Below are positions 1 through 11,740 of a DNA stretch of 11,740 nt, in pieces. The notes below the pieces were generated by a model. That model was not told where the DNA came from, ran no database searches, and saw only the letters and a list, made by a program, of their open reading frames with translations. How positions within the stretch are numbered: the stretch's first letter is position 1; each line of letters starts with the position of its first letter. This stretch comes from an uncultured archaeon (GTDB taxonomy: Archaea; Iainarchaeota; Iainarchaeia; Iainarchaeales; CSSED10-239), in the NCBI GenBank assembly GCA_964468895.1, contig CAYXWT010000023.1, forward strand, positions 1-11,740, given 5' to 3'. Made by a program: the position numbers and the translations under genes.

Positions 1-95
1 GTATAGTAAATTTTGATGGAATTAAATCTAGTAACAATAATTTTGAAACAATGCCAATTGATTATTATAATGATTCTATAAATTTTTATGAATAA
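1..95 (+). CDS. 3' end of an upstream gene cut by the window edge. Its C-terminus resembles the tandem secreted-protein family that follows.
   Basis: Frame 3 is open from the window edge to TAA at 93-95 and reads ...IVNFDGIKSSNNNFETMPIDYYNDSINFYE*. It is N/D/Y-rich and ends in a DYYND..FY tail, comparable to LYYNDGQLYR at the end of the 1044-1799 protein. It lies 35 nt upstream of the next family member. Confidence 0.45.
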   Translation, partial: IVNFDGIKSSNNNFETMPIDYYNDSINFYE

Positions 96-130
96 TTTTT
101 TTACTAAGCAAATATTAGGAGATGAAATTT

Positions 131-1027
131 ATGAAATTAAAAATATTTAATGTTTTACTTTTATTATTATTTTTACAATTAATATTAGTTCCAATTTATG
201 CAGAAGATGTATATAATTCAGTTTATGACATATATCCTATTGATGATAATATATATCATATTGATAATATAAATGAAATTTTATATAATAAAGTTGATAC
301 TATTTCTGAAGATTATTTTGATTCTGAAAAGTTTGAAGATAATGTTTTGATTTATCCAGATTCAAATCTTTATGATACAGTTTGGACTAATTATTATACA
401 GAATCTTCTACTAATAATGATTTTTTTAAAAACAATATTGAATCTGGAAACATAATCTCTACAAGTACGGTACATCCTGATAGTATAGTGTATACTTATA
501 ATAATATAAATACACAAGGTGATTATTATTTTGGTAGAGATCCAAAGGTTATAACTCAAGAGTATTTAGAAGTTATAGATTATTCTACAGATAATGATTC
601 TTTAAATATAGATAAATTTAATTATAATGTGTCAACTATAAATTCTAATAATTCTGAAGATTCTGAAGAATTTAATATAAATCTTAATTATGAAACTGTT
701 GCTCCAGAATTAAATATGAGTTATAGAAATGATTCAGAAAGTAAGTTAAGTTCTTTAAAATATCTTGATGGTGGTTCTGTAGAATCTATTGATACTTATT
801 CTTGTATTGGTTGTATGCCTTGTGAATATTTGGGTTTAGAAAATAAAAATTTTGAACCAGTTTCTGATGAATTTTATGATAGTTATGAAGGTTATAAAGA
901 AAATTTTGTAAATGATAGTTCTGCTTTAATGTTAAGACATAATTCTCAAGAATATGTTGATGGAGAAAAGTTTAAATCTGATTTGGAATTATCATATTAT
1001 ATTGATGGTGTAATTTATTATAAATAA
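131..1027 (+). CDS. Secreted acidic N/D/Y-rich protein of unknown function, tandem family copy 1
   Basis: This is track ORF 122-1027. AGGAG at 117-121 abuts the ATG at 122, so the ATG at 131 (9-nt spacer) is the likelier start. It gives MKLKIFNVLLLLLFLQLILVPIYA|EDV, a classic signal peptide with a positive n-region, a hydrophobic core and a small-x-small cleavage site. The copy shares PDSxVY, the LEVIDYSTDNDSLNIDKFNY island and the C-terminal YYIDGVIYYK with its paralogs. It also contains CIGCMPC. Confidence 0.85.
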   Translation: MKLKIFNVLLLLLFLQLILVPIYAEDVYNSVYDIYPIDDNIYHIDNINEILYNKVDTISEDYFDSEKFEDNVLIYPDSNLYDTVWTNYYTESSTNNDFFKNNIESGNIISTSTVHPDSIVYTYNNINTQGDYYFGRDPKVITQEYLEVIDYSTDNDSLNIDKFNYNVSTINSNNSEDSEEFNINLNYETVAPELNMSYRNDSESKLSSLKYLDGGSVESIDTYSCIGCMPCEYLGLENKNFEPVSDEFYDSYEGYKENFVNDSSALMLRHNSQEYVDGEKFKSDLELSYYIDGVIYYK

Positions 1028-1043
1028 TTATATGGTGATTTAA

Positions 1044-1799
1044 ATGAAAAATAAAGTTTTAGGATTTTTAGTAGTTTTGATATGTTTACAAGTGTTTTTG
1101 TCTTTTGTTAGTGCTCAAGATAATAATGATTCTCAAGAAATCTTATATGGTTTACAAAAACTAGAATTTAATATTGAAAATGAAGTCCTTGATATTGTTG
1201 TAGAAAATTCTTTTGAAACACTTACTGTTTTAGATAATGATGTAAATTATATGTCTTATATTAATATAAATGAAGGTCAATTTGATGAATCTATAGCTTA
1301 TAACTTTATTGATATTTATCCAGATAGTTTAGTATATAGTTATAAAGATGCAGATTATATAAATGATAATAGTATCTCTTTTAGAATCGTAGATTATAGT
1401 CCTTATAATGATAATATAGATTTTGATAAAATAAATTATTCTGAAAATTACAGTTTAGTTGACAATCCAAATATTTATTATGAAAAAGATAATTCTTCTT
1501 CACAGATAGAGATAGATGCATATTCTAATTTATCAAATATTACTTATAAACATAATTTTGGTGAAGATTATTGTGTGGATTGTTATGGATATTTAAATGG
1601 AGCTGAAGTAGAAGAAAATGATTTTTCTAAAGATAAATATTATGAATCTTATGAATTTGATAATAGAATGTATAGTAATTTTTCAGAAGACTTTAAAGTT
1701 AAATTATACCATGTAAAAGATACTTTTGATTATGAAAATCATCTTGTCAATTCTGAAGATGAGTTTTTATATTATAATGATGGTCAACTATATAGATAA
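1044..1799 (+). CDS. Secreted acidic N/D/Y-rich protein of unknown function, tandem family copy 2
   Basis: GGTGAT box with a TTAA spacer before the ATG at 1044. The signal peptide is MKNKVLGFLVVLICLQVFLSFVSA|QDN. Family islands present are IYPDSLVYSY, FRIVDYSPYNDNIDFDKINY and a C-terminal YYNDGQLYR. It also has a CVDC motif. It starts 16 nt after copy 1. Confidence 0.88.
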   Translation: MKNKVLGFLVVLICLQVFLSFVSAQDNNDSQEILYGLQKLEFNIENEVLDIVVENSFETLTVLDNDVNYMSYININEGQFDESIAYNFIDIYPDSLVYSYKDADYINDNSISFRIVDYSPYNDNIDFDKINYSENYSLVDNPNIYYEKDNSSSQIEIDAYSNLSNITYKHNFGEDYCVDCYGYLNGAEVEENDFSKDKYYESYEFDNRMYSNFSEDFKVKLYHVKDTFDYENHLVNSEDEFLYYNDGQLYR

Positions 1800-1841
1800 T
1801 TAGTTGAATTTTTACTAAAAAATATTAAAATGGTGATTTAT

Positions 1842-2630
1842 GTGAAATTTAAAGTAATATTAAGTTTTTTGTGTTTAATGATTTTTTTACAATCAATATT
1901 AGTTTCAGTTTATGCTGAAGATTTTGTAGATGTGTCCTATTTAAATGAAAATATTAATTATTACATTAATAATAAGGTAAATTCAGTAATATCTGATTTT
2001 CCTCAAGGAGATTTAATTTATAGTTCTGATGAAGTAGAAGTATATAACCATATTGATTCATCAGGAAGTGTATTTTGGGGTGAAATTCCATCTGATTCTT
2101 ATACCATTACAAAGTCAGATGATAGTATAGTGTATGAATATTATAGTTTTAAGGGTACAGCTCATAATTCTGATACTGATCAATGTTATGTGAAATTTGT
2201 TGATAATACACCTGAAAATAATATTGTTGATTTAGATGAAACTTATTATAATTATAGTCACGATATGATAAGACAAAACAATTTAGTATCTATAGAATTA
2301 GAATCTAAAAATAATCATTTAAATAAAAGAGAATTCTATGAATTAAGAGATAATAGACTAGAATCAAATATTTATCTTAATAATGTTGAAAATCAATTTG
2401 TAGACTATTATAAAGTTACTGATGTTGATACAACAGATTCTATTGATTTATATAATGGGTATTTAGAAGACAATCTTAATAGTGAATATTTTGATATTTA
2501 TTTAGAAAAATATCCTGAAAATTCTACTATTATAATTTCTCATAATCATGAATATTATAATGATGAAAGTGAAATGATAAATTATAGTCCAGACGTTATA
2601 TTTTATAATAATGGTCAGTTTTATAAGTAA
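1842..2630 (+). CDS. Secreted acidic N/D/Y-rich protein of unknown function, tandem family copy 3 (probable GTG start)
   Basis: This is track ORF 1830-2630. The ATG at 1830 overlaps the GGTGAT box (1832-1837). An in-frame GTG at 1842 sits at exactly the same spacing (GGTGAT+TTAT+GTG) as in copy 2 (GGTGAT+TTAA+ATG). It yields (M)KFKVILSFLCLMIFLQSILVSVYA|EDF, which matches the MKxK start of the paralogs. Family islands present are DDSIVYEY, VKFVDNTPENNIVDLDETYY and a C-terminal FYNNGQFYK. Confidence 0.85.
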   Translation: MKFKVILSFLCLMIFLQSILVSVYAEDFVDVSYLNENINYYINNKVNSVISDFPQGDLIYSSDEVEVYNHIDSSGSVFWGEIPSDSYTITKSDDSIVYEYYSFKGTAHNSDTDQCYVKFVDNTPENNIVDLDETYYNYSHDMIRQNNLVSIELESKNNHLNKREFYELRDNRLESNIYLNNVENQFVDYYKVTDVDTTDSIDLYNGYLEDNLNSEYFDIYLEKYPENSTIIISHNHEYYNDESEMINYSPDVIFYNNGQFYK

Positions 2631-2643
2631 TATTGTGATTTAT

Positions 2644-2757
2644 ATGAAACTAAAATTATTTTCTTTTCTATTTTTCACATTTAAATTAATAAGTATTATA
2701 TACATAATTTTTGGTAAAGGGTACTTGAATTTATTTACTAAATTAACTACTATTTAA
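2644..2757 (+). pseudogene. 37-codon ORF that looks like the decayed 5' end (RBS, start codon and leader) of a further family copy
   Basis: The sequence TGTGATTTATATGAAA mirrors GGTGATTTAAATGAAA and GGTGATTTATGTGAAA of copies 2 and 3, with a G->T change in the box. The translation is MKLKLFSFLFFTFKLISIIYIIFGKGYLNLFTKLTTI*. It starts MKLK like copy 1 and is hydrophobic, but it stops before any mature domain. Confidence 0.35.
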
Positions 2758-2797
2758 CTAAACGTGCACATGTAACTATAGTTAGTTAAATAATAGT
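2746..2797. repeat. 16-bp inverted repeat (one mismatch) with a 20-nt spacer, in the gap between copy 3 plus relic and copy 4
   Basis: ACTACTATTTAACTAA (2746-2761) pairs with TTAGTTAAATAATAGT (2782-2797, reverse complement ACTATTATTTAACTAA), a 15/16 match. The spacer ACGTGCACATGTAACTATAG contains the small palindromes GTGCAC and ACATGT. TAACTATA recurs at 2815-2822. Confidence 0.6.
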
Positions 2798-2879
2798 GTT
2801 TATAAATTTAACTTAACTATAAAATTATAAGGCAAGTTATATATATTTATATAAATAATTATTTTTAGGAGATTTTTTT

Positions 2880-3656
2880 ATGAAAAGTAAAATTTTATTT
2901 TGTCTTTCTTTAGTTGTGTTTTTACAATTAATGTTTTCAGTAGTATATGCACAAGGTATAGGAAAGGATGATATTTCAAATAACAGATTATTAAGTGAGA
3001 ATGTTCAAATTATAAGTGGTACATTAGATGATAATATAAGATATATCTCTGACACTTACCTTAATGGTAGCTCTAACCATCCAAATTTAGTATATGTTGA
3101 CAATACTAGCCCAGATAGTACTGTGTATGTTTACAATAATGATAACCAATATATCTCTGGATCTCCAGATTCTTTAACAGATGAATCTCTTAGAATTGTA
3201 GATTATTCTGTAAATAATGATACTTTAAATGTAGATAAATTTACATATTCAGAAAATGGTTCTAGTCTGTATGGAGATGGTACTTTAGAAAAATATAGAA
3301 TAAATTATAATAGTGGATATACAAACCCAGTATTAGAAGTTATCTATGTTAATGATAATCAAAATGAATTAGAAACATTACAATATAATAATTATGGAAA
3401 TTCTAGAGGTTATACTACTTATAGTTATAATGGTAATTATCAAAATTCAGAAGTAATTTTAATTGATCCTGTTTTTAGTGATGTTACAAATGTAAGTAAT
3501 GATTTTTCAGATGTATATGATAATTTTAGACAAAATAATGTTAATGGTGATTATCCTATTACTTTAACAGAATTTAATGAGTATTATGAAGATAATGAAT
3601 TTTTAAATTCTAATATTGGATATTCTTACTATATTGATGGTCAGATATATAAATAA
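2880..3656 (+). CDS. Secreted acidic N/D/Y-rich protein of unknown function, tandem family copy 4
   Basis: AGGAGA at 2867-2872 lies 7 nt before the ATG. The signal peptide is MKSKILFCLSLVVFLQLMFSVVYA|QGI. Family islands present are HPNLVY, SPDSTVYVYNN, LRIVDYSVNNDTLNVDKFTY and a C-terminal YYIDGQIYK. A 249-bp gap precedes it, so it probably has its own promoter. Confidence 0.88.
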   Translation: MKSKILFCLSLVVFLQLMFSVVYAQGIGKDDISNNRLLSENVQIISGTLDDNIRYISDTYLNGSSNHPNLVYVDNTSPDSTVYVYNNDNQYISGSPDSLTDESLRIVDYSVNNDTLNVDKFTYSENGSSLYGDGTLEKYRINYNSGYTNPVLEVIYVNDNQNELETLQYNNYGNSRGYTTYSYNGNYQNSEVILIDPVFSDVTNVSNDFSDVYDNFRQNNVNGDYPITLTEFNEYYEDNEFLNSNIGYSYYIDGQIYK

Positions 3657-3680
3657 ATTAATTTATTAAAAATTAATTTG

Positions 3681-3702
3681 TTTTTTTTAAATCTTTTTTT
3701 TT
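3681..3702 (+). terminator. Oligo-T termination signal after the family array
   Basis: A T8 run (3681-3688) and a T9 run (3694-3702) lie within 50 nt of the copy-4 stop codon. They follow the self-complementary AAATTAATTT, which occurs twice. Oligo-T tracts are the usual archaeal terminator, and this also fits an intrinsic terminator tail. Confidence 0.5.
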
Positions 3703-3825
3703 AAAAATACTAATTAAAATTGGTTCTACATAACAGACTTGTTGTATATATACAAATAACTTTATTTTATAAGTTTTTCTAATTCTAAATATTATGTAAT
3801 ATAATAAATATTTAATTATTTTATT

Positions 3826-3907
3826 GCTGGGTTTCCCGAGCGGTCAAAGGGGCTGGACTTAAGATCCAGTGCTTAGTGCTTCGCAGGTCCGAATCCTGCA
3901 CCCAGCA
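3826..3907 (+). tRNA. tRNA-Leu (anticodon UAA), class II, no encoded CCA
   Basis: The sequence folds by hand. The 7-bp acceptor stem is GCTGGGT/ACCCAGC. The 3-bp D stem carries a GAGCGGTCAAA loop. The anticodon stem is CTGGA/TCCAG with loop CTTAAGA (U33, anticodon TAA, G37). There is a 13-nt variable arm. The T stem is GCAGG/CCTGC with loop TCCGAAT, and the discriminator is A. Confidence 0.93.
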
Positions 3908-3928
3908 TTTAAAAGAAGGTGATTTTTT

Positions 3929-4516
3929 ATGAAAGTTGGAATTATTGCAGATGTACATGATAATATTCATAATTTGATTTTAATTTTAGAAAAATTAGAA
4001 GAAAGCAATTGTGAAAAAATATTGTTTTTAGGAGATTTTGCAGGAGCAGCTGTTGCTTTTGTATTAAGAAGTTCTAAAATACCTATTTTTGGAATTTGGG
4101 GTAATAATGATGGTGATAAAACAAGAATTACTAGACTTTCTATGCATCCAAATAGTAATTTAACAATGGCTGATGATATTTTTGATTTTATAGAAATTGA
4201 TAATAGAAAGATATTTTTAACACATTATCCTAATCTTGCTAAACCTATGGCTAAATCTAAAGAATTTGATGCTGTATTTTATGGACATAATCATCTTAAA
4301 AATGTAGAATATATTGGAGATTGTTTAGTAGCTAATCCTGGTGAAATTGGAGCTCAAAAAACAGGAGTTCCAAGTTATGGAATTTATGATACAAAAACAA
4401 ATAAAATTGAAATTATAATACTTGAAAATGGTGTTATTTTAGGTACAGATAAAGTAAGAGAGCATATGAAAGAAATTTCTTTTAAGTGGAGTCAAACAAA
4501 AGCTCATAAATATTAA
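3929..4516 (+). CDS. Metallophosphoesterase, YfcE/MJ0936 family
   Basis: GGTGAT box 5 nt before the ATG. The calcineurin-like motifs are present in order: IIADVHDN (DxH), FLGDF (GD), GNNDGD (GNxD), THYP (H), YGHNH (GHxH) and NPGE. Confidence 0.88.
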   Translation: MKVGIIADVHDNIHNLILILEKLEESNCEKILFLGDFAGAAVAFVLRSSKIPIFGIWGNNDGDKTRITRLSMHPNSNLTMADDIFDFIEIDNRKIFLTHYPNLAKPMAKSKEFDAVFYGHNHLKNVEYIGDCLVANPGEIGAQKTGVPSYGIYDTKTNKIEIIILENGVILGTDKVREHMKEISFKWSQTKAHKY

Positions 4517-4559
4517 AAATAAATAAATTTTATTTTTAATTTACTCTAAAGGAAAATAT

Positions 4560-5216
4560 ATGAAACCAAAGAAAATAAGTAGGGCTTTTTCTAAAAATAT
4601 AGGTTTGCCTAAAAATATTAAGAGTTTAGAATTTGAAAATACAAAATCTACTCCTAAAATTAGTGGTGTATTAGGTACTTCTAAATTATTAGCATTTTGT
4701 GTTAAAAGAAAGTATAATCTTCCTGATAATATGGTAGTTAAGGGATCTTGTGTTTTACCATATCAAATAAGTTTATTATCTAAGCTTAATAAAACTATTA
4801 AGGTTCTTAAAAAAGGTGACATTATAGTTCACAATAATTTGAGTTGTAGTATTATTAATTTTAAAAAGAAAAAAATAAGTTATATAAATGATTTACATTC
4901 TTTACCTTCTTTAGTATCTTTTAAAGGTTTTAAAGTATTTTATAATAAAATGATGTCTAAAATAAAAGAAAATAAATCAACACATGTATATTGTCATACA
5001 TGGATATTTTATGAACATCCAAATTTAGCAGAAAAGTTAGGTTTTAAGTTGGTTAGAAATATAGATAAATTTAAGAGTTTGTTAGAAAAAAATAAAATTA
5101 TAAAAATAGAAAAATATAGTTTTAAATCTGACAAATTAATCTGTAGAGATATTGATAATAAAATTGTAGCTCTTAATGCTAATTTATTACCTTTATGGGT
5201 AAAAGAAATAAAATAA
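4560..5216 (+). CDS. Hypothetical lysine-rich protein (218 aa), no recognisable family
   Basis: A long ORF in a genome where stop codons are frequent. A weak AAGGA lies 6 nt upstream of the ATG. No signal peptide or transmembrane segment is apparent. The only faint similarity is HPNLAEKLGFKLV, which resembles the end of a GNAT fold, but there is no Q/RxxGxG/A motif. Confidence 0.65.
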   Translation: MKPKKISRAFSKNIGLPKNIKSLEFENTKSTPKISGVLGTSKLLAFCVKRKYNLPDNMVVKGSCVLPYQISLLSKLNKTIKVLKKGDIIVHNNLSCSIINFKKKKISYINDLHSLPSLVSFKGFKVFYNKMMSKIKENKSTHVYCHTWIFYEHPNLAEKLGFKLVRNIDKFKSLLEKNKIIKIEKYSFKSDKLICRDIDNKIVALNANLLPLWVKEIK

Positions 5217-5265
5217 TAAAAAAACTATATTTAAAAACTCTTTTTGTCTTAAATATAATATTATT

Positions 5266-5347
5266 GCTAGGTTTCCCGAGCGGTCAAAGGGGCCAGACTC
5301 AAGATCTGGTGCTTAGTGCTTCGCAGGTTCAAATCCTGCACCTAGCA
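5266..5347 (+). tRNA. tRNA-Leu (anticodon CAA), class II, no encoded CCA
   Basis: Same architecture as 3826-3907. The acceptor stem is GCTAGGT/ACCTAGC. The anticodon stem is CCAGA/TCTGG with loop CTCAAGA (anticodon CAA). The variable arm is identical. The T loop is the canonical TTCAAAT. A T5 run follows immediately. Confidence 0.94.
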
Positions 5348-5492
5348 TTTTTAATCTTATTTTATTTCTAACTATTTATTAATTCTATTTTAGTTAATAA
5401 GTATTATTATTATGTGATCTTAATTTTATATGTTATTAATAAAAAAGATAATTAAAATTATTGTTATTGTTTTTTGATTTCTATTAAATTTA

Positions 5493-5669
5493 TCATTTAT
5501 GATTCTTATCTATTTCTTTAGTTTGTGATAAAGAAAAATTATTGTTGGTGGACTTTTTTTCTTTTTTAAATAAATAAAAAATCTTAGTGGAAAAGCATAA
5601 AATTCCAGTAATTGTGATTATAATTATTACAATTATTATCATTACTAATCCACTTATTGCAAATAACAT
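5493..5669 (-). CDS. Possible small single-pass membrane protein (58 aa), not in the ORF track
   Basis: I translated the minus strand by hand: MLFAISGLVMIIIVIIIITITGILCFSTKIFYLFKKEKKSTNNNFSLSQTKEIDKNHK*. One hydrophobic helix is followed by a basic tail. It starts 25 nt downstream of the AIM24-like gene on the same strand. No clear SD box is present, so support is weak. Confidence 0.3.
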   Translation of the reverse strand: MLFAISGLVMIIIVIIIITITGILCFSTKIFYLFKKEKKSTNNNFSLSQTKEIDKNHK

Positions 5670-5694
5670 AATTTATTCTTTTTTCTAAAGTTAT

Positions 5695-6375
5695 TTAGTG
5701 TTTTCGTCCTAATGTACTACTTATTTTATATGCTAATTTAGCTATAGGCATAGTTTGTAAACATATTTTTCCAGGACCTGAAAGTGTTGCTAAAAATAAT
5801 CCTTCTCCACCAAATAGCATATTTTTTACACCTTTTACAGCAGCAATATCATAAGTTACTGTGTCTTCAAAATATGCAATGTGGCCAGGATCTATTTTTA
5901 AAGTTTGTCCTTCTTCAAGATTAATTTCAATTAAATCACCACAGATTTCTAAAAAAACATAACCGGTACCACTTATTTTTTGAAGAATAAATCCTTCGCC
6001 TCCAAAAAATCCTGCTCCTAATTTTTTGTTAAACTTAATATCTAGGTTAACTGTTTCTTGAGCTACCATAAATGCATCTTTTTGTGCAATTATTGTCTTT
6101 GTACCATCTAATTGAATAGGTACTATTTTTCCAGGAAATTCAGAAGGAAAAGAAATCATACCTTGTCCATCTTCACAACTATAAGTATTCATAAAAAAAG
6201 ATTCTCCAGAGAGTAATCTTCCAAAGGCTTTTCCAACTCCTCCTTTAGTGTTAGTTTCCATTTTTATGTTTGTACTCATCCAACCCATGCCACCGCCTTC
6301 AGTATATAATGAATCTCCTTTTTGTAAGATTACATCTAAGGTTTGCATAGATTCTCCTCTTATTTTAAATTCCAT
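5695..6375 (-). CDS. TIGR00266 / AIM24 (DUF124) family protein
   Basis: GAGGTGA box 4 nt before the ATG. The sequence is characteristic of the family: GGGMGWMS, GESFFMNTY, GAGFFGGEGFILQKISGTG, DPGHIAYFE and NMLFGGEGLFLATLSGPGKICLQTMP. Confidence 0.88.
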   Translation of the reverse strand: MEFKIRGESMQTLDVILQKGDSLYTEGGGMGWMSTNIKMETNTKGGVGKAFGRLLSGESFFMNTYSCEDGQGMISFPSEFPGKIVPIQLDGTKTIIAQKDAFMVAQETVNLDIKFNKKLGAGFFGGEGFILQKISGTGYVFLEICGDLIEINLEEGQTLKIDPGHIAYFEDTVTYDIAAVKGVKNMLFGGEGLFLATLSGPGKICLQTMPIAKLAYKISSTLGRKH

Positions 6376-6653
6376 TTTTTCACCTCTAAATTATATTTAT
6401 TAAAATTAATACTAATTTTATTATTACTTCTTTTTTTAAATGCATTTCTTTTTTATAAATTAGAATTTAGGGTTGGATTTTATTATTTTATAGCTTTGTA
6501 AAAAAATTAAACTTAATATTTACAATTGTGTAATTATAATACGAAATAGTCATACCTAATTTAAGTATTTAATTAAATTTATTTTAATATATAGATTATA
6601 AAATTTAGATTGTAAGATTTATTAAAAATAGTTATATCTAGTTTTCTAAAGCA

Positions 6654-6701
6654 ATCAAATTCAAGATTTGATATGATTGTGTTTTATAGTTTCAAATCTT
6701 G
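6654..6701 (-). terminator. Hairpin-forming region downstream of the ABC-2 permease gene; possible terminator
   Basis: CAAGATTTGA (6662-6671) is the exact reverse complement of TCAAATCTTG (6692-6701), with a 20-nt loop. An overlapping alternative hairpin is ATCAAAT-TCAAG-ATTTGAT (6654-6672). It lies 33 nt past the stop at 6734 on the minus strand, and T-rich sequence lies beyond it. Confidence 0.3.
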
Positions 6702-6733
6702 CATCTAATGTTTTTTATAGTATTTGATTTTAT

Positions 6734-7480
6734 TTAAGTTTCTATTTTATTAAATAATTTTGTACCTATTATTCCTAATATTATTATTAATAAAATTAAA
6801 ATTCCTAAACTTAAGAACATATTAATTTTATAACTAACTCCTAAACTAAATTTTAATATGTTTACAGCATAAGTAAAAGGATTTATTTTAATTAATAATT
6901 GAATAATTTTAGGGAAATTATTTACTGGAAATAAAGCACCTGAAATAAAAATCATTGGCATAATTAATACATTCATTATTATTGGAAATGATTGCATATC
7001 ATCAAATTTAGAAGCAATACTAGTTCCAAGTAAATTAAATAAAAGTGAAATTATAAACATAAATATTATACATATTGGGAATAGGAACCAGTTTACAATT
7101 CTAAAACCCATAATAAATCCTAAAAATAATACTATTATTCCTTGAATGGTGCTTGTAGTAGCTCCACCTAGACATCTACCAAATAATAAACTGGATCTAG
7201 ATACAGGTGCTACTAATGTTTCTTTTAAAAATCCAAATTGTTTATCCCAAATCAAAGACATTCCGTTCATTGTTGAACTCATAAGAATTGTCATTCCAAC
7301 TATTCCAGGAATTAAAAATTGTATATAATTTCCATTACCTACTTGTTCAAACATACCTCCTATTCCAAAACCAAAGGCTATTAAAAATAATAATGGTTGT
7401 ATTAATGTTACTAGTAATCTTTGTTTATTTCTGAAATATTCTTTAATTTGTCTGTGCCACATGACAGTTAATGCATTCAT
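6734..7480 (-). CDS. ABC-2 type transporter permease
   Basis: The protein has about six hydrophobic segments after an N-terminal MWHRQIKEYFRNKQRL cytoplasmic stretch, which is typical of ABC-2 (DrrB/NodJ-like) exporter permeases. Its ATG overlaps the stop codon of the upstream ATPase gene (ATGA, 7477-7480). Confidence 0.85.
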   Translation of the reverse strand: MNALTVMWHRQIKEYFRNKQRLLVTLIQPLLFLIAFGFGIGGMFEQVGNGNYIQFLIPGIVGMTILMSSTMNGMSLIWDKQFGFLKETLVAPVSRSSLLFGRCLGGATTSTIQGIIVLFLGFIMGFRIVNWFLFPICIIFMFIISLLFNLLGTSIASKFDDMQSFPIIMNVLIMPMIFISGALFPVNNFPKIIQLLIKINPFTYAVNILKFSLGVSYKINMFLSLGILILLIIILGIIGTKLFNKIET

Positions 7481-8259
7481 TTTCTAAACCTTTTTCTCAT
7501 TTGTTCTATATTACTTCCTGATTGTTCTCTAATATCATAGCCTGTTAATTTTAAAAATGCATTTTCAAGAGTATCTGTTTTTGTAGTTTTTTTAATATAT
7601 TTTGAAGTTCCTTCTATTAATATTTTTCCATTATCAATTATTGCAATTTTAGTTGCTATTTTTTCAGCTTCATCTAAATTGTGTGTTGTAAAAAAGATTG
7701 TTATTTTTTGTTTTTTATTTATTTTTTTAATTTGATCCCAAAGAAAAGCTCTTGTTTGAACATCTAAACCTAAAGTTGGTTCATCAAGAAATAATATTTT
7801 TGGAGAATGAAGAAGTCCTCTTGCAATTTCAACTCTTCTTTTCATTCCTCCAGAAAACTTTTTTACAAGTTCATCTTTTCTTTCAAGTAAACCTATATTA
7901 TCTAACATTTTTTCAATTTTATTTTTAATTTCTTTCTTTGGAATTCCATATAAACTTGCATGATAATAAAGATTTTCATAAGCTGTAAGATCATCATCTA
8001 AAGTTGGATCTTGGAAAATAACACCAATTGATTTTCTTACATTTTTTTCTTCTTTGGCTGTATTAAATCCAGCTATAGTTATAGAACCAGTAGTAGGTTT
8101 TGAAATTGTTGTCATCATTTTTATGGTTGTTGATTTTCCTGCTCCATTAGGACCTAGAAAAGCAAAGATTTCACCATCATTAACTTTAAAATTAATATTA
8201 TCTATTGCTATAAACTTTTTAAATTTTTTACTTAAATTAATTACATTTATTGCGATCAT
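7477..8259 (-). CDS. ABC transporter ATP-binding protein (ABC-2/DrrA-like exporter ATPase)
   Basis: Motifs present are Walker A GPNGAGKST, the Q-loop FQDPTL, the signature FSGGMKRRVEIA, Walker B ILFLDEPTLGLD and the H-loop TTHNLDEAE. An AGGTAAT box lies upstream. Confidence 0.93.
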   Translation of the reverse strand: MIAINVINLSKKFKKFIAIDNINFKVNDGEIFAFLGPNGAGKSTTIKMMTTISKPTTGSITIAGFNTAKEEKNVRKSIGVIFQDPTLDDDLTAYENLYYHASLYGIPKKEIKNKIEKMLDNIGLLERKDELVKKFSGGMKRRVEIARGLLHSPKILFLDEPTLGLDVQTRAFLWDQIKKINKKQKITIFFTTHNLDEAEKIATKIAIIDNGKILIEGTSKYIKKTTKTDTLENAFLKLTGYDIREQSGSNIEQMRKRFRK

Positions 8260-8302
8260 ATTTTATTACCTTTTTATAATTTAGATTTTTTAGAAATAGT
8301 TA

Positions 8303-8602
8303 TTATTTTTTTAAAAATTTAAATTCTCCACCTTCAATTTTAATTGCTTTACCGTTAACTAATGCATTTGCTATTTTCTGTCTAGCACTTAAAACTAATC
8401 TATGAAAAGTAGGTTGAGAAATTTCCATCTTTTTTGCACATTCATTTTGATCTAATTGTTTACAATCTTTTAATCTTATAGACTCTAATTCTACATAACT
8501 TAAACATATTTCTTCTAGTTCTCTGATAGGAACTCCTGCAGGTTTAAAATAAGTTATATCGGGTTTATTTCTTATTCTTCTAAATCTTCTAGGTCTAGGC
8601 AT
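8303..8602 (-). CDS. DUF134 / UPF0251 family predicted DNA-binding protein
   Basis: The N-terminus MPRPRRFRRI....YFKPAGVP and the helix-turn-helix region ECAKKMEISQPTFHRLVLSARQKIA are the hallmark of the family. Its start overlaps the upstream P-loop gene by 8 nt. Confidence 0.88.
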   Translation of the reverse strand: MPRPRRFRRIRNKPDITYFKPAGVPIRELEEICLSYVELESIRLKDCKQLDQNECAKKMEISQPTFHRLVLSARQKIANALVNGKAIKIEGGEFKFLKK

Positions 8603-9113
8603 AATATATCTTCTTTTTTAATTTTTTTATAAAAATAATTTCATCTTTTTTATTTTTAATTTCTATATATTTTTTTTTAATTTTATCTAAACAATGTTTA
8701 TGTTCATAATAATAAGACATTTTTTTATTAAAATCATAATTTGATGCATTTTTAATAAAATTTATTCTTTGTTTAATATTGGATTTGTATTTTTTAAATA
8801 AAATGTTTTTAAGTTCTCTTTTAATAAGTCTAAATATAATTTTGTATTTGTTAATATTAAGCCAAACAATTGTATCAGCTTTTTCAAGAGCTTTTTTATT
8901 CCATTTAGTATATACACCTTCAATAATCCAATCTTTATTTTTAATAATTTTATTAAATTCTTTATTTCTATGTTCTTCTGTATTACATGTAGTAAATTTT
9001 ATTTTCCAATAGATGTTATCTAAATCAAAATATTTTATTTTTAGTATTTTACTTATTTTTTTTGCAAGTGTAGTTTTACCAGATCCAGATGCACCTATTA
9101 TATATATTTTCAT
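8595..9113 (-). CDS. Small P-loop NTPase, adenylate-kinase-like / topology-modulation (FlaR-like) family
   Basis: An N-terminal Walker A, MKIYIIGASGSGKTTLAKK, is followed by YFDLDNIYW and DWIIEGVY. This is the pattern of short nucleoside/nucleotide-kinase-fold proteins. The stop codon is TAG at 8595-8597. Confidence 0.75.
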   Translation of the reverse strand: MKIYIIGASGSGKTTLAKKISKILKIKYFDLDNIYWKIKFTTCNTEEHRNKEFNKIIKNKDWIIEGVYTKWNKKALEKADTIVWLNINKYKIIFRLIKRELKNILFKKYKSNIKQRINFIKNASNYDFNKKMSYYYEHKHCLDKIKKKYIEIKNKKDEIIFIKKLKKKIYYA

Positions 9114-9163
9114 AATTTTTCTTTTTCATTGTTACTTAAAAAATATTCTATAATTTATTACTT

Positions 9164-9502
9164 TTAGTGATTACAACTTTGTTGTATGTCTTCTAAATTA
9201 TTTATATTTTCTATAACTTCAGATAATTTAGTATAGTTTCCTTTTTTAAGTTTTATATTTTTTTCTTTAAATAAATTAATTGCTCTTTGGCCTATACCTA
9301 AAGTAAAAACTAAATCTATATTATATTTTGAAACTTGATCAACAGGAGTTAAGTCTTTACTAGTATGATTAATATCATTTTCAATATATTCTATATTTTT
9401 GGTGTTATAATCATAGATTGCAAAGTATTTACAATATCCAAAATGTTCACTTAAATCTGATTCTAATTGTTTATTATTATCTAAAGCTATTAATATCTTC
9501 AT
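9164..9502 (-). CDS. NifX/NifB-type (Nitro_FeMo-Co, dinitrogenase FeMo-cofactor-binding fold) protein, copy 2
   Basis: AGGAGA box upstream. The sequence MKILIAL...SEHFGYCKYFAIYD...IDLVFTLGIGQRAINLFKEKNIKL matches the usual HFG..xxF.iyd / G.G..a...l layout of this small domain family. Confidence 0.8.
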   Translation of the reverse strand: MKILIALDNNKQLESDLSEHFGYCKYFAIYDYNTKNIEYIENDINHTSKDLTPVDQVSKYNIDLVFTLGIGQRAINLFKEKNIKLKKGNYTKLSEVIENINNLEDIQQSCNH

Positions 9503-9548
9503 ATTTTTCTTTCTCCTAATTTTTATTATTTAATTCAGTAATTTATTT

Positions 9549-9851
9549 TTAAATTTCTTCTAAAACTTCTTGAATAGTTTTATTTTGAATTTCTTTAAAT
9601 TTCAGATTTTTATCATTTATTGCTGAAATCATATTTGATCCAAATTTACCACAAATGATAAGATCTATGTTTTTATCATTTAACATTTCAACAACACTAA
9701 AACCAGCACCACCTCCGCCAACTGCAAAAGGATTTTTTAGTGCTTCTATTAGTTTTTTATCTTCAAATACAAGATAGTAATCAGCTCTTCCTCCTCTATT
9801 ACTTATTATTGAATTTAAATCGTTTTTATCACTAGCTATTGCGATTTTCAT
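9549..9851 (-). CDS. NifX/NifB-type (Nitro_FeMo-Co fold) protein, copy 1
   Basis: MKIAIASD...GGRADYYLVFE...GGGGAGFSVVEMLNDKNIDLIICGKFGSNMISAINDKNLKF matches the family layout. Its ATG overlaps the stop codon of the upstream permease gene (ATGA, 9848-9851). A GGAGAT box lies upstream. Confidence 0.8.
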   Translation of the reverse strand: MKIAIASDKNDLNSIISNRGGRADYYLVFEDKKLIEALKNPFAVGGGGAGFSVVEMLNDKNIDLIICGKFGSNMISAINDKNLKFKEIQNKTIQEVLEEI

Positions 9852-10351
9852 ATTTTCATCTCCACTATTTTTTCTACAACTATTCCTTGTATTATAGATA
9901 TAATTATCATAACACTCATTAGAACTATTGCATATGTTACACTAAAGTATAATATTATTATTGGTAATATTGGTATTTTTATTGATCTATTATAAAGAAA
10001 TGTTGCGATATATGCATCTCTAGCACCTTCTTTTTTAAGATCTTTAAGTAATGGATACCACATGTATATTGGACCAGTTGAAATAACTCCTCCTAAAATG
10101 GATATTAACCATCCTTTAATTCCAGAGTTTTTTCCTAAATATTTTGAGATTGTTTTTGGTTTTATAAAATAATCTGCAATAACCATTAATATAAATATTA
10201 TTATAAAAACATAGTATATATTTGAAAATATACTTAAAAATTTATTTAAAACTAAAATAAATTTGCTTTTATTAATAATAAGTAAGATTAAATATAAAAT
10301 TATTACAAAACCAAGAAAAAATAAACTTTTATTATCTTTATAATTAATCAT
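9848..10351 (-). CDS. Integral membrane protein, second half of a split permease (ArsP_1/COG0701-like predicted permease)
   Basis: The protein is strongly hydrophobic, with about 4-5 helices. The motif TGPIYMWYPLLKDLKKEGARDAYIATFLYNR parallels the motif in the preceding gene product. Its start overlaps the upstream gene (ATGA, 10348-10351). Confidence 0.7.
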   Translation of the reverse strand: MINYKDNKSLFFLGFVIILYLILLIINKSKFILVLNKFLSIFSNIYYVFIIIFILMVIADYFIKPKTISKYLGKNSGIKGWLISILGGVISTGPIYMWYPLLKDLKKEGARDAYIATFLYNRSIKIPILPIIILYFSVTYAIVLMSVMIIISIIQGIVVEKIVEMKI

Positions 10352-10767
10352 ATTATATTCACCACTGTAACTGTTATAATTGCTACAATTATTGAAAATA
10401 CAAAATTACTTATATTTCTAACTATTGCAAACTTTTTTCCAAGTAAAACAATTTCAGCTGGTAACTGTACAATTCCAACAGTAACCCATGCAACTAGAAA
10501 AGCAGTTATTGCAACTAAACTGATTCCTTGTTTTAATAGTTCTCCACCTATTATGTAACTAGTAATTGGATTTCCTGCTGCAACACTTCCAATTCCAGCA
10601 CCTATTATAGTATCTATAAAACCACCACTAAATAATAATTTAATAGTTTCACTAGGTATTAATATATCTACTAAACTAACTAAAAGTATTATTGAAAAAA
10701 TCATTGGTAAGGAATTTAGTATTCCTTTTAAAGATTTTTTAATAGATATTTTTAATTTTTTGTTCAT
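10348..10767 (-). CDS. Integral membrane protein, first half of a split permease (ArsP_1/COG0701-like predicted permease)
   Basis: The protein is hydrophobic, with about 4 helices. The motif AGNPITSYIIGGELLKQGISLVAITAFLVAW resembles the repeat unit of predicted-permease families, in which a CSCG-type loop usually precedes a ..kG.s.g...aFL segment. No cysteines are present here. An AGGT box lies upstream. Confidence 0.7.
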   Translation of the reverse strand: MNKKLKISIKKSLKGILNSLPMIFSIILLVSLVDILIPSETIKLLFSGGFIDTIIGAGIGSVAAGNPITSYIIGGELLKQGISLVAITAFLVAWVTVGIVQLPAEIVLLGKKFAIVRNISNFVFSIIVAIITVTVVNII

Positions 10768-10920
10768 AATTTTAACCTGTATTTTTTTAGTTAATTTTTT
10801 TAAAAGTTTAATTTAATTTTTATTTTTTTATATCTTTAAGAGATTATAATATTTATATATGTATTTGTGATTTTAATATTATGTTTTTATAATTTTAAAT
10901 ATTTGTAGTTGTAATTTTTA

Positions 10921-10946
10921 AATAAAAAAAAAGAAAGATAAAAGAT
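10921..10946 (-). terminator. Oligo-T tract immediately after the DUF5320-like gene
   Basis: The minus strand reads TAA-atcttttatctttcTTTTTTTTTatt, where the T9 corresponds to the A9 at 10924-10932 on the plus strand. This suggests the small gene is transcribed separately from the permease operon, which starts about 180 bp further on. Confidence 0.4.
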
Positions 10947-11117
10947 TTATTGTGTATTGTTTCTAAATCTTCCACCTAATCTTCTACCCATTCCATTTCT
11001 TTTACCAAAATTGCTTGTGTCTGTAGTAGTATTTTTGTTATTTGGATTACATTTTCCAAGACCTCTTCCAGTCATAGGTCCTTTTCCATCTGGTCCTGTT
11101 TTATCTTCTCTAGGCAT
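10947..11117 (-). CDS. DUF5320-family small protein (56 aa), not in the ORF track
   Basis: I translated the minus strand by hand, codon by codon: MPREDKTGPDGKGPMTGRGLGKCNPNNKNTTTDTSNFGKRNGMGRRLGGRFRNNTQ*. The N-terminus MPRxDxTGPxGxGPMTGRGxGxC is the DUF5320 signature as I know it. A GGAGG box (CGGAGGAATTATTATG) lies 7 nt upstream. DUF5320 commonly neighbours DUF134 and NifX-like genes. Confidence 0.8.
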   Translation of the reverse strand: MPREDKTGPDGKGPMTGRGLGKCNPNNKNTTTDTSNFGKRNGMGRRLGGRFRNNTQ

Positions 11118-11144
11118 AATAATTCCTCCGTATATTTTTTATTT

Positions 11145-11212
11145 TGAATCTATATTCAAAACTAACATAATTAGAGACCGAAGTCTTTTTAAAGGTATTG
11201 AATATATATTCA
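11145..11212. promoter_or_regulatory. Two copies of a 14-bp palindrome, TGAAT-N4-ATTCA, upstream of the DUF5320-like gene; candidate operator pair
   Basis: Site 1 is TGAATCTATATTCA (11145-11158), extended to TTTTGAAT-CTAT-ATTCAAAA at 11142-11161. Site 2 is TGAATATATATTCA (11199-11212). The two differ at one base, and their centres are 54 bp apart. Site 1 begins 28 nt upstream of the start codon. Confidence 0.5.
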
Positions 11213-11266
11213 CAACTGAGTTTAAATAATCACATTATCTTTTAGAAAATAAAAACTCTAAAGTAA

Positions 11267-11485
11267 CTTATAGTACTGGTTCTATTAAAAAAAGAAGATC
11301 TGGTTTATTATGATAACCAAGATATTTCTTTATTTTATAATATTGTTATAGATGTTGGTGGTATTGAATATAGTGGTAGTTTAAAGTCTGTAACTTATTC
11401 ATCTTTATATCTAAATCTATATTATTATGTTATTTACGATATAAGTGGTAATATGATTAATATAAAACATAATGATTTCGAATAA
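11267..11485 (+). pseudogene. 72-codon open frame without any ATG/GTG/TTG start; probable C-terminal gene remnant
   Basis: The frame reads LIVLVLLKKEDLVYYDNQDISLFYNIVIDVGGIEYSGSLKSVTYSSLYLNLYYYVIYDISGNMINIKHNDFE*, bounded by TAA at 11264 and TAA at 11483. At this base composition an open run of this length is unlikely by chance. The only in-frame ATG is 10 codons from the end. Confidence 0.3.
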
Positions 11486-11740
11486 TTAATAATTTTGTAT
11501 TATTTTATATATTTGTGATATTTTTAATTTATCTATCTTTAATGTGTTGATTATTAGTGAAAAACATTTATTACGCTTTTTTGGCTCTAAAAAGCTTTAA
11601 ATACGCTTCTACCTATTTTGGGTTATATGTTAACCCTAAATAATTTTCTAATATTAGAAATAGATTTTTTAATTTTATTTTAAAATATGGGCATCTAAGA
11701 ATCGAAAAACAGTTGCTAAATTATTGATCTTTATTAAATC

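Follow-up and report, generated by a model that had tools for sequence, protein, structure and literature searches.

A strain-variable tandem array of fast-evolving paralogous genes with predicted signal peptides in a DPANN archaeon

We analysed a stretch of 11,740 nt (hereafter the window) from an uncultured archaeon of the Iainarchaeota (GenBank assembly GCA_964468895.1, contig CAYXWT010000023.1, positions 1 to 11,740), which begins with a tandem array of paralogous genes for small, acidic, putatively exported proteins (Table 1). An earlier reading made from the letters of the window (the sequence-only reading) had placed here four complete genes and, at the left edge, the tail of a fifth, and had counted at least five paralogues. 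The four open reading frames (ORFs) and the tail, which ends in the family's C-terminal sequence, were found where it had put them, and the tandem arrangement stands; the count had to be corrected. The array was extended to the left, as that reading had advised, with two metagenome contigs, L090 and L002, which share an identical overlap of 126 nt and of which L002 continues into window position 1. This extension yielded a further gene, copy −1 (cm1; 264 aa on the L090 plus L002 reconstruction), and the whole of copy 0, a truncated paralogue of 168 aa consisting of the N-terminal half and the tail, whose 5′ part lies on L090 and L002. On the overlapping contigs the full array comprises six genes and one decayed 5′ remnant between a tRNA-Ser and a tRNA-Leu gene, in the order tRNA-Ser(GCU), upstream block, copy −1, copy 0, copy 1, copy 2, copy 3, a 37-aa ORF, a second block, copy 4 and tRNA-Leu(UAA).

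Table 1. Features of the array, its boundaries and its variable segments. Positions are those of the window unless a contig is named.
Feature	Position	Strand	Details
tRNA-Ser(GCU), array left boundary	L090 38-121
Copy 0 tail and stop codon	3..95	+	frame-3 translation ...IDYYNDSINFYE* is the family tail
Copy 1, 298 aa	131..1027	+	signal peptide 131-202; GGAG 118-121
Strain-hypervariable N-terminal mature segment, copy 1	203..380	+	L001 vs L002: 18-nt indel, many substitutions
Copy 2, 251 aa	1044..1799	+	signal peptide 1044-1115; GGTGA 8 nt upstream
Strain-hypervariable segment, copy 2	1145..1340	+	26 differences vs L003 in 196 nt; 0 in remaining 459 nt
Copy 3, 262 aa, GTG start	1842..2630	+	signal peptide 1842-1916
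37-aa ORF MKLKLFSFLFFTFKLIS...	2644..2757	+	read from sequence; downstream of copy 3; conserved in L093
Conserved upstream block with TTTATAAA at 2799-2806	2781..2818	+	near-identical to block 5′ of copy −1
Copy 4, 258 aa	2880..3656	+	signal peptide 2880-2951; AGGAG 2867-2871; T-rich run after stop codon
Strain-hypervariable segment, copy 4	3020..3084	+	9 of the gene's 13 differences vs L003
tRNA-Leu(UAA), array right boundary	3825..3908	+	ARAGORN and Rfam

The best start of copy 1 is the ATG at 131, and the public gene call likewise gives 298 aa; that of copy 3 is the GTG at 1842, which is preceded by TGGTGATTTA exactly as in copy 2, and the 36-nt start region of copy 3 is 81% identical to that of copy 2. 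The spacers from copy 0 to copy 3 measure 35, 16 and 42 nt, and GGAG or GGTGA, motifs that can pair with the anti-Shine-Dalgarno (SD) sequence usual in archaea, stands before each start, in agreement with the operon-like spacing and individual SD boxes described earlier. The 37-aa ORF (MKLKLFSFLFFTFKLISIIYIIFGKG...) sits behind an SD-like TTGTGATTTAT, as the starts of copies 2 and 3 do, and looks like the decayed signal-peptide (5′) end of a seventh paralogue. The ∼38-nt block 5′ of copy 4 aligns near-identically with positions ∼205-243 of L090, 5′ of copy −1, and may represent a duplicated promoter or other regulatory element of archaeal type, in this case for copy 4. We infer two transcription units, one of copies −1, 0, 1, 2 and 3 and one of copy 4, each with a duplicated putative promoter region. 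A scan for bacterial promoters returned 58 sites against 47.5 expected, which is uninformative for AT-rich archaeal DNA.

Homology between the copies was tested on the mature parts only, which share 25-36% identity. BLASTP with composition-based statistics linked all full-length copies, with E-values of 3e-24 for copies 1 and 4, 1e-6 for copies 2 and 4, 3e-7 for copies 2 and −1 and 9e-12 for copies 3 and −1. In Smith-Waterman comparisons all six pairs of window copies scored above every one of 300 shuffles (z 4.3-19.5), and the shared motif islands are therefore not compositional. For the truncated copy 0 the link to the window copies was weak (z −0.3 to 4.1), and that to P0024, a family member from a diverged relative described below, was significant (7e-6). 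By these sequence statistics the homology claimed for the array genes holds, and their status as true paralogues is solid.

The mature proteins are very acidic, with isoelectric points of 4.05-4.08 for the six copies of this array and 4.05-4.46 over the family set of eight, which consists of these six and the two members, P0023 and P0024, from the diverged relative. Their enrichment in D, E, N, Y and S and their poverty in K and R, noticed in the sequence-only reading, are evident from the counts (D+E ∼19%, K+R ∼5%). The composition of the family (D 10.8, E 7.9, N 13.4, Y 11.4, S 10.0, K 3.8, A 0.7%) is very different from that of 11 neighbouring proteins (D 4.1, E 4.9, N 6.5, Y 3.4, K 11.7, A 4.4%), and for this reason AT bias is not the cause of the acidity. 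Alanine is nearly absent from the family, and lysine is three-fold depleted despite a genome of 22% GC. The motifs reported earlier are present in the copies, namely D-S-x-[VI]-Y-x-Y, a central island of the form [VI]D[YN][ST]xxN[DN]x[LIV][ND]x[DE] and a C-terminal tail of the form [YF]Y[IN][DN]G[QV]xY[KR]. Mean pairwise identity among the paralogues is 32-42% in the motif islands and tail, compared with 9-21% in the N-terminal region, and nearly every invariant residue is D, N, Y, S or G. The YYxDG motifs brought YD/RHS-type or other beta-hairpin repeats into consideration; these were rejected, as there was no Pfam hit to PF05593 and self-comparison with hhalign, in which no internal repeats were detectable, gave an off-diagonal E-value of 0.9.

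All eight family members carry, on a rule-based reading of sequence features, a predicted signal peptide of the Sec/signal peptidase I type. Each has an MKxK start with two lysines in the n-region, 16-17 hydrophobic residues that include an invariant LQ, and then [VI]-x-A followed by E or Q across the putative cleavage site, much as had been read from the window; the 19-residue Kyte-Doolittle maximum of the h-region is 2.2-2.7, at residue 5. The invariant glutamine, always after leucine, stands in the middle of the hydrophobic core in all eight signal peptides, where a polar residue is unusual. Beyond residue 30 the 19-residue hydropathy is at most 0.82 in the eight members, leaving no further hydrophobic segment, and the +1 residue is never Cys, which agrees with the reported lack of transmembrane and lipobox features. 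Several other classes of exported protein were considered and rejected: a lipoprotein, because there is no Cys at or near the end of the h-region and the +1 residue is E or Q; a type IV pilin-like or archaellin class III leader, because MK[LNFS]K is followed directly by I, V or L, with no G or A after the charged residues; and a C-terminally anchored PGF-CTERM/archaeosortase substrate, because of the same low hydropathy and because the proteins end in YYxDGQxYK. At the DNA level, the signal-peptide segment is 57-85% identical between copies versus 50-58% for codon-aligned mature DNA, so that its better conservation, also proposed earlier, is upheld.

No family member came near threshold in Pfam, NCBIfam, PHROGs or PADLOC (best E-values of 0.018-0.25, far below the cut-offs), and a profile search of PDB sequences gave a best E-value of 0.51, as expected from the earlier statement that the proteins have no recognisable domain. 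A HMMER search of 1.84 billion representative proteins returned seven clusters, all from this lineage, and a profile of four copies searched against an index of 5.8 billion proteins found near-identical orthologues only. A wider indexed profile search at E≤10 added no twilight hits, returning family members and a single chimera, P0027. Scans of IMG/VR with two family members found no relative, nor did a scan of genome contigs with copy 1 give a match; a metagenome scan with the four-sequence alignment gave no match, and with copy 4 alone two near-identical loci only. At the level of sequence, the family is new, without detectable relative and restricted to one lineage. P0027 (L092 86-850) begins with a sortase-like half (Pfam Sortase, E 2.4e-5), to which the last 100 aa of copy −1 are joined. 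We rejected it as a real domain fusion: it lies on a 1038-nt MEGAHIT contig with its junction at YKDNDYF, an AT-rich k-mer, and is probably an assembly chimera.

A contig nearly identical to the window, L003 (99.6% over 10.6 kb), extends it to the right and carries genes for FtsZ, a Fic protein and deoxyhypusine synthase (DS). Because this FtsZ is 86-88% identical to those of Iainarchaeota/Diapherotrites metagenome-assembled genomes, including the complete genome of Ca. Forterrea multitransposorum, the window organism is, by this marker, a Forterrea-related DPANN archaeon (Iainarchaeota/Diapherotrites); the FtsZ and DS of the twin contig also bear out the archaeal host presumed in the sequence-only reading. 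Forterrea, a close relative, is predicted to be symbiotic (PMC5905446), and the window organism, a tiny archaeon, probably is as well. The G+C content is 20-28% throughout the window (∼22% overall), with no difference between the array and the rest, and hence no indication that the array was transferred recently.

A more diverged relative (L091/L089; FtsZ 97.5% identical) has two family copies, P0023 resembling copy 4 and P0024 resembling copy 1, at a syntenic site beside tRNA-Leu(CAA) and a block encoding DUF134, two NifX-like proteins, a permease and DUF5320. Given six genes and a remnant here versus two genes there, the array has recently expanded or contracted. Compared with the relative, copy 4 shows 59-60% identity and a dN/dS (ratio of nonsynonymous to synonymous substitution rates) of 0.54-0.62, and copy 1 shows 42% identity and a dN/dS of 0.80. 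The linked genes show 58-97.5% identity and a dN/dS of 0.04-0.46 (0.04 for FtsZ, 0.10-0.11 for DUF134 and DS, and 0.22-0.46 for the other seven). The family genes thus evolve fast, and the description of them as rapidly diverging was apt, all the more as strain differences are concentrated in them. They are nevertheless kept as ORFs in independent metagenomes and in the diverged relative, with dN/dS below 1.

Over 10.6 kb the window and L003 differ at 45 positions, 40 of which fall in copy 2 (26), copy 3 (1) and copy 4 (13), and 35 differences cluster in short N-terminal segments of copies 2 and 4; eight of the 11 non-family genes are without any difference. Copy 1 differs between L001 and L002 at residues ∼27-83, including an indel of six codons, and is otherwise almost identical. 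A variable N-terminal segment is therefore found in several copies (Table 1), and this localised hypervariability at the strain level is the most interesting new point of the analysis. The variable sites comprise A 13, C 10, T 8 and G 5, with all substitution types represented and an excess of transitions. A diversity-generating retroelement (DGR) was considered as their source and rejected, because the window holds no template/variable repeat pair, no reverse transcriptase is found among the genes of the window or L003, and the substitutions are not adenine-specific. The signal-peptide segment of copy 1 in L001 matches that of copy −1 (identical at 66 of 75 nt) and not that of the window's copy 1, which suggests that the conserved 5′ ends underwent unequal crossing-over or gene conversion. 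The array thus shows recombination or mosaicism between strains.

The genes around the array have features of their own. The tRNA-Leu(UAA) and tRNA-Leu(CAA) genes lie in an 89%-identical direct repeat of 96 nt (3815-3910 and 5255-5350), which includes ∼10 nt upstream of each and brackets a metallophosphoesterase gene and a Lys-rich ORF of 218 aa (4560-5216). The latter has no Pfam, PHROG or PADLOC match and is conserved, with changes, in L094 (Ga0075122_10026277). When positions 380-2689 of L094, which represents another strain, are compared with window positions 3657-7480, only the last ∼37 aa of the metallophosphoesterase remain in L094 and the AIM24 gene is missing, so that structural variation extends to the region downstream of the array. 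Farther right, on the minus strand (8303-11117), lie genes for DUF134, a P-loop kinase-like protein, two NifX/NifB-type (Nitro_FeMo-Co) proteins, two half-size permeases and DUF5320; this block is syntenic in L091 except for the kinase-like gene. In L091 the two-gene array is preceded (3873-5258) by genes for a rhomboid-like membrane protein and for a DUF333 protein that has a hydrophobic segment at its N-terminus, and upstream of these by a type I restriction enzyme R subunit.

The likeliest explanation for these results, to which we give about an even chance, is that the array encodes exported proteins in which a conserved scaffold bears a variable tip; duplication and recombination would diversify them, and they would contact a changing external partner. 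Signal peptidase I would most likely cut after V-x-A, and the mature protein so released would be soluble, ∼230-275 aa long, very acidic, rich in Tyr, Asn and Asp and without a membrane anchor; low-confidence models suggest that it is probably mostly or all beta. As a soluble protein without an anchor it would reach the envelope/S-layer space or the medium, so that the family members would be extracellular or envelope-associated. The N-terminal ∼50-95 aa, which are poorly conserved and vary between strains, would form the tip, whereas the conserved part, from the D-S-x-V-Y-x-Y motif through the VDYSxxNDxLNxDK island to the fixed C-terminal YYxDGQxYK, would be a structural scaffold that retains the protein at the cell surface or as part of an oligomer. 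Tandem duplication and decay would change the size of the array, as the six genes and remnant here against two in the relative suggest, and homologous recombination would produce mosaic alleles and swap signal-peptide regions, with the well-conserved signal-peptide DNA as its probable substrate. The tip would contact a host-cell surface, a glycan or a virus, and since this partner would change, the population would contain the interaction or decoy protein in many variants. The surface, adhesin or host-interaction role suggested in the sequence-only reading is consistent with the data, and the family proteins may make contact with a ligand, host or virus; differences at the N-terminal end even between nearly identical strains are what one would expect of proteins in contact with hosts or viruses. 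A further-reaching version, which we consider decidedly unlikely, is a recombination-driven surface-variation system in which the signal-peptide DNA and the D-S-x-V-Y region bracket an exchangeable N-terminal "tip" cassette. If this were true, the cassette would be shuffled among paralogues and alleles, causing continuous variation of a host-binding or virus-decoy protein, and the array would be the archaeal counterpart of antigenic variation in bacteria, with an entirely new fold as its basis.

Several observations weigh against the proposal of exported proteins with a variable tip. Copy 3 is near-invariant between strains, and the ratio of nonsynonymous to synonymous polymorphism (pN/pS) in the variable segments is not above 1 (copy 2 has 13 nonsynonymous and 9 synonymous differences), so that relaxed constraint with recombination explains them as well as positive selection does. 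The signal sequence may be an uncleaved signal anchor, which would give an N-terminally tethered protein instead. N-glycosylation sequons are not enriched over shuffled sequence, except weakly in copy 2. The all-beta scaffold is taken from low-confidence secondary structure: AlphaFold2 models built on alignments of 9-12 sequences reached a predicted local distance difference test (pLDDT) score of 39.1 for copy 4 and 34.1 for copy 2, and a Foldseek search of PDB with the low-confidence copy 4 model (best E 1.0, TM-score <0.25) is meaningless.

Other explanations account for parts of the same evidence. The proteins might be cell-envelope components, either of the S-layer or associated with it, that vary under virus pressure on the outermost layer and not through host recognition. 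Many archaeal S-layer proteins are exported, very acidic and rich in Tyr, Asn and Ser, and the family shares this composition and predicted export, has several paralogues and varies in a part that would be surface-exposed. However, Pfam and NCBIfam reveal no S-layer domain in the members, whose 25-30 kDa is little for an S-layer protein; they have neither an excess of sequons nor a C-terminal anchor, and a lattice would not usually be built from six divergent subunits expressed together. We therefore regard this explanation as unlikely, though one to be taken seriously. If instead the proteins were secreted binders of cations, minerals or glycans, bulk acidic and aromatic composition would be what matters, the sequence would drift freely and the variability would be neutral. 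The contents of D+E (∼19%), Y (11%) and K+R (∼5%), the restriction of invariant residues almost entirely to D, N, Y, S and G, and a dN/dS that is high yet below 1 all fit such a role, which we nonetheless think quite improbable: strain variation is sharply confined to the N-terminal segment and not protein-wide, and discrete motifs are kept across deep paralogue divergence, which argues for a defined fold.

The flanking tRNA-Ser and tRNA-Leu genes and the strain variability downstream would also suit the cargo of a mobile element or provirus integrated between tRNA genes, such as receptor-binding or superinfection-exclusion proteins. This origin is very unlikely, as neither the window nor the neighbourhood of the array in L091 contains an integrase or other mobile-element gene, PHROGs gave no hit and, for the two family members scanned, IMG/VR gave no relative; moreover, the GC content of the array equals that of its flanks, and the family occupies a syntenic chromosomal site in the relative with 97.5% FtsZ identity. 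In a window of 22% GC that encodes low-complexity proteins, the ORFs could in principle be compositional artefacts of an AT-rich genome and not real genes. That idea is already refuted by composition-corrected E-values down to 3e-24 and shuffle z-scores up to 19, and by conservation of the ORFs in independent metagenomes and in the diverged relative with dN/dS below 1.

Little is known of how DPANN archaea recognise their partner cells and attach to them, and the candidates put forward are mostly giant multidomain adhesins. The present family is a candidate of a different type: small, multi-copy, apparently exported, unrelated to known families and hypervariable at one end. It further shows how genes arise, decay and recombine in a very small genome. 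Its value is lessened because the lineage is uncultured and the family does not extend beyond one narrow clade. Tandem, recombining, exported variable families are well known in reduced-genome bacteria and unsurprising in DPANN archaea, where hypothetical secreted proteins are abundant.

Known systems resemble the array in different respects. The SPEARE proteins of Nanohaloarchaeum antarcticus, also a DPANN archaeon, are large surface proteins through which it has been proposed to contact its host. They are giant and multidomain, with protease, adhesion and nuclease domains, in contrast to the ∼260-aa proteins described here, which have no recognisable domain, and the likeness is that both are lineage-specific candidate host-interaction proteins of a DPANN archaeon. 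Archaeal S-layer and envelope glycoproteins share with the family a Sec signal peptide, acidic pI, richness in Tyr, Asn, Ser and Thr and an extracellular location, the last predicted here, but the proteins of the array are much smaller and have no domain match, no PGF-CTERM or other C-terminal anchor and no excess of sequons. The DGR targets of DPANN archaea and candidate phyla radiation (CPR) bacteria are similar in the localised hypervariability of a presumably extracellular protein in a small-genome DPANN lineage. Here, however, there is no template/variable repeat pair in the window, no reverse transcriptase among the neighbours and no adenine-specific substitution, and the variable part is N-terminal and contains indels. 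Compared with the Vsp/Vlp lipoproteins of Mycoplasma and the paralogous families of Borrelia, the array has an archaeal host, no sequence relationship and no lipobox, its variable part is N-terminal, and a repeat-based phase-variation switch or silent cassette is not seen. Those bacterial families are nevertheless like the array in consisting of tandem paralogues whose export-signal DNA is conserved and whose exposed part varies, in recombining and differing in copy number between strains, and in belonging to reduced genomes.

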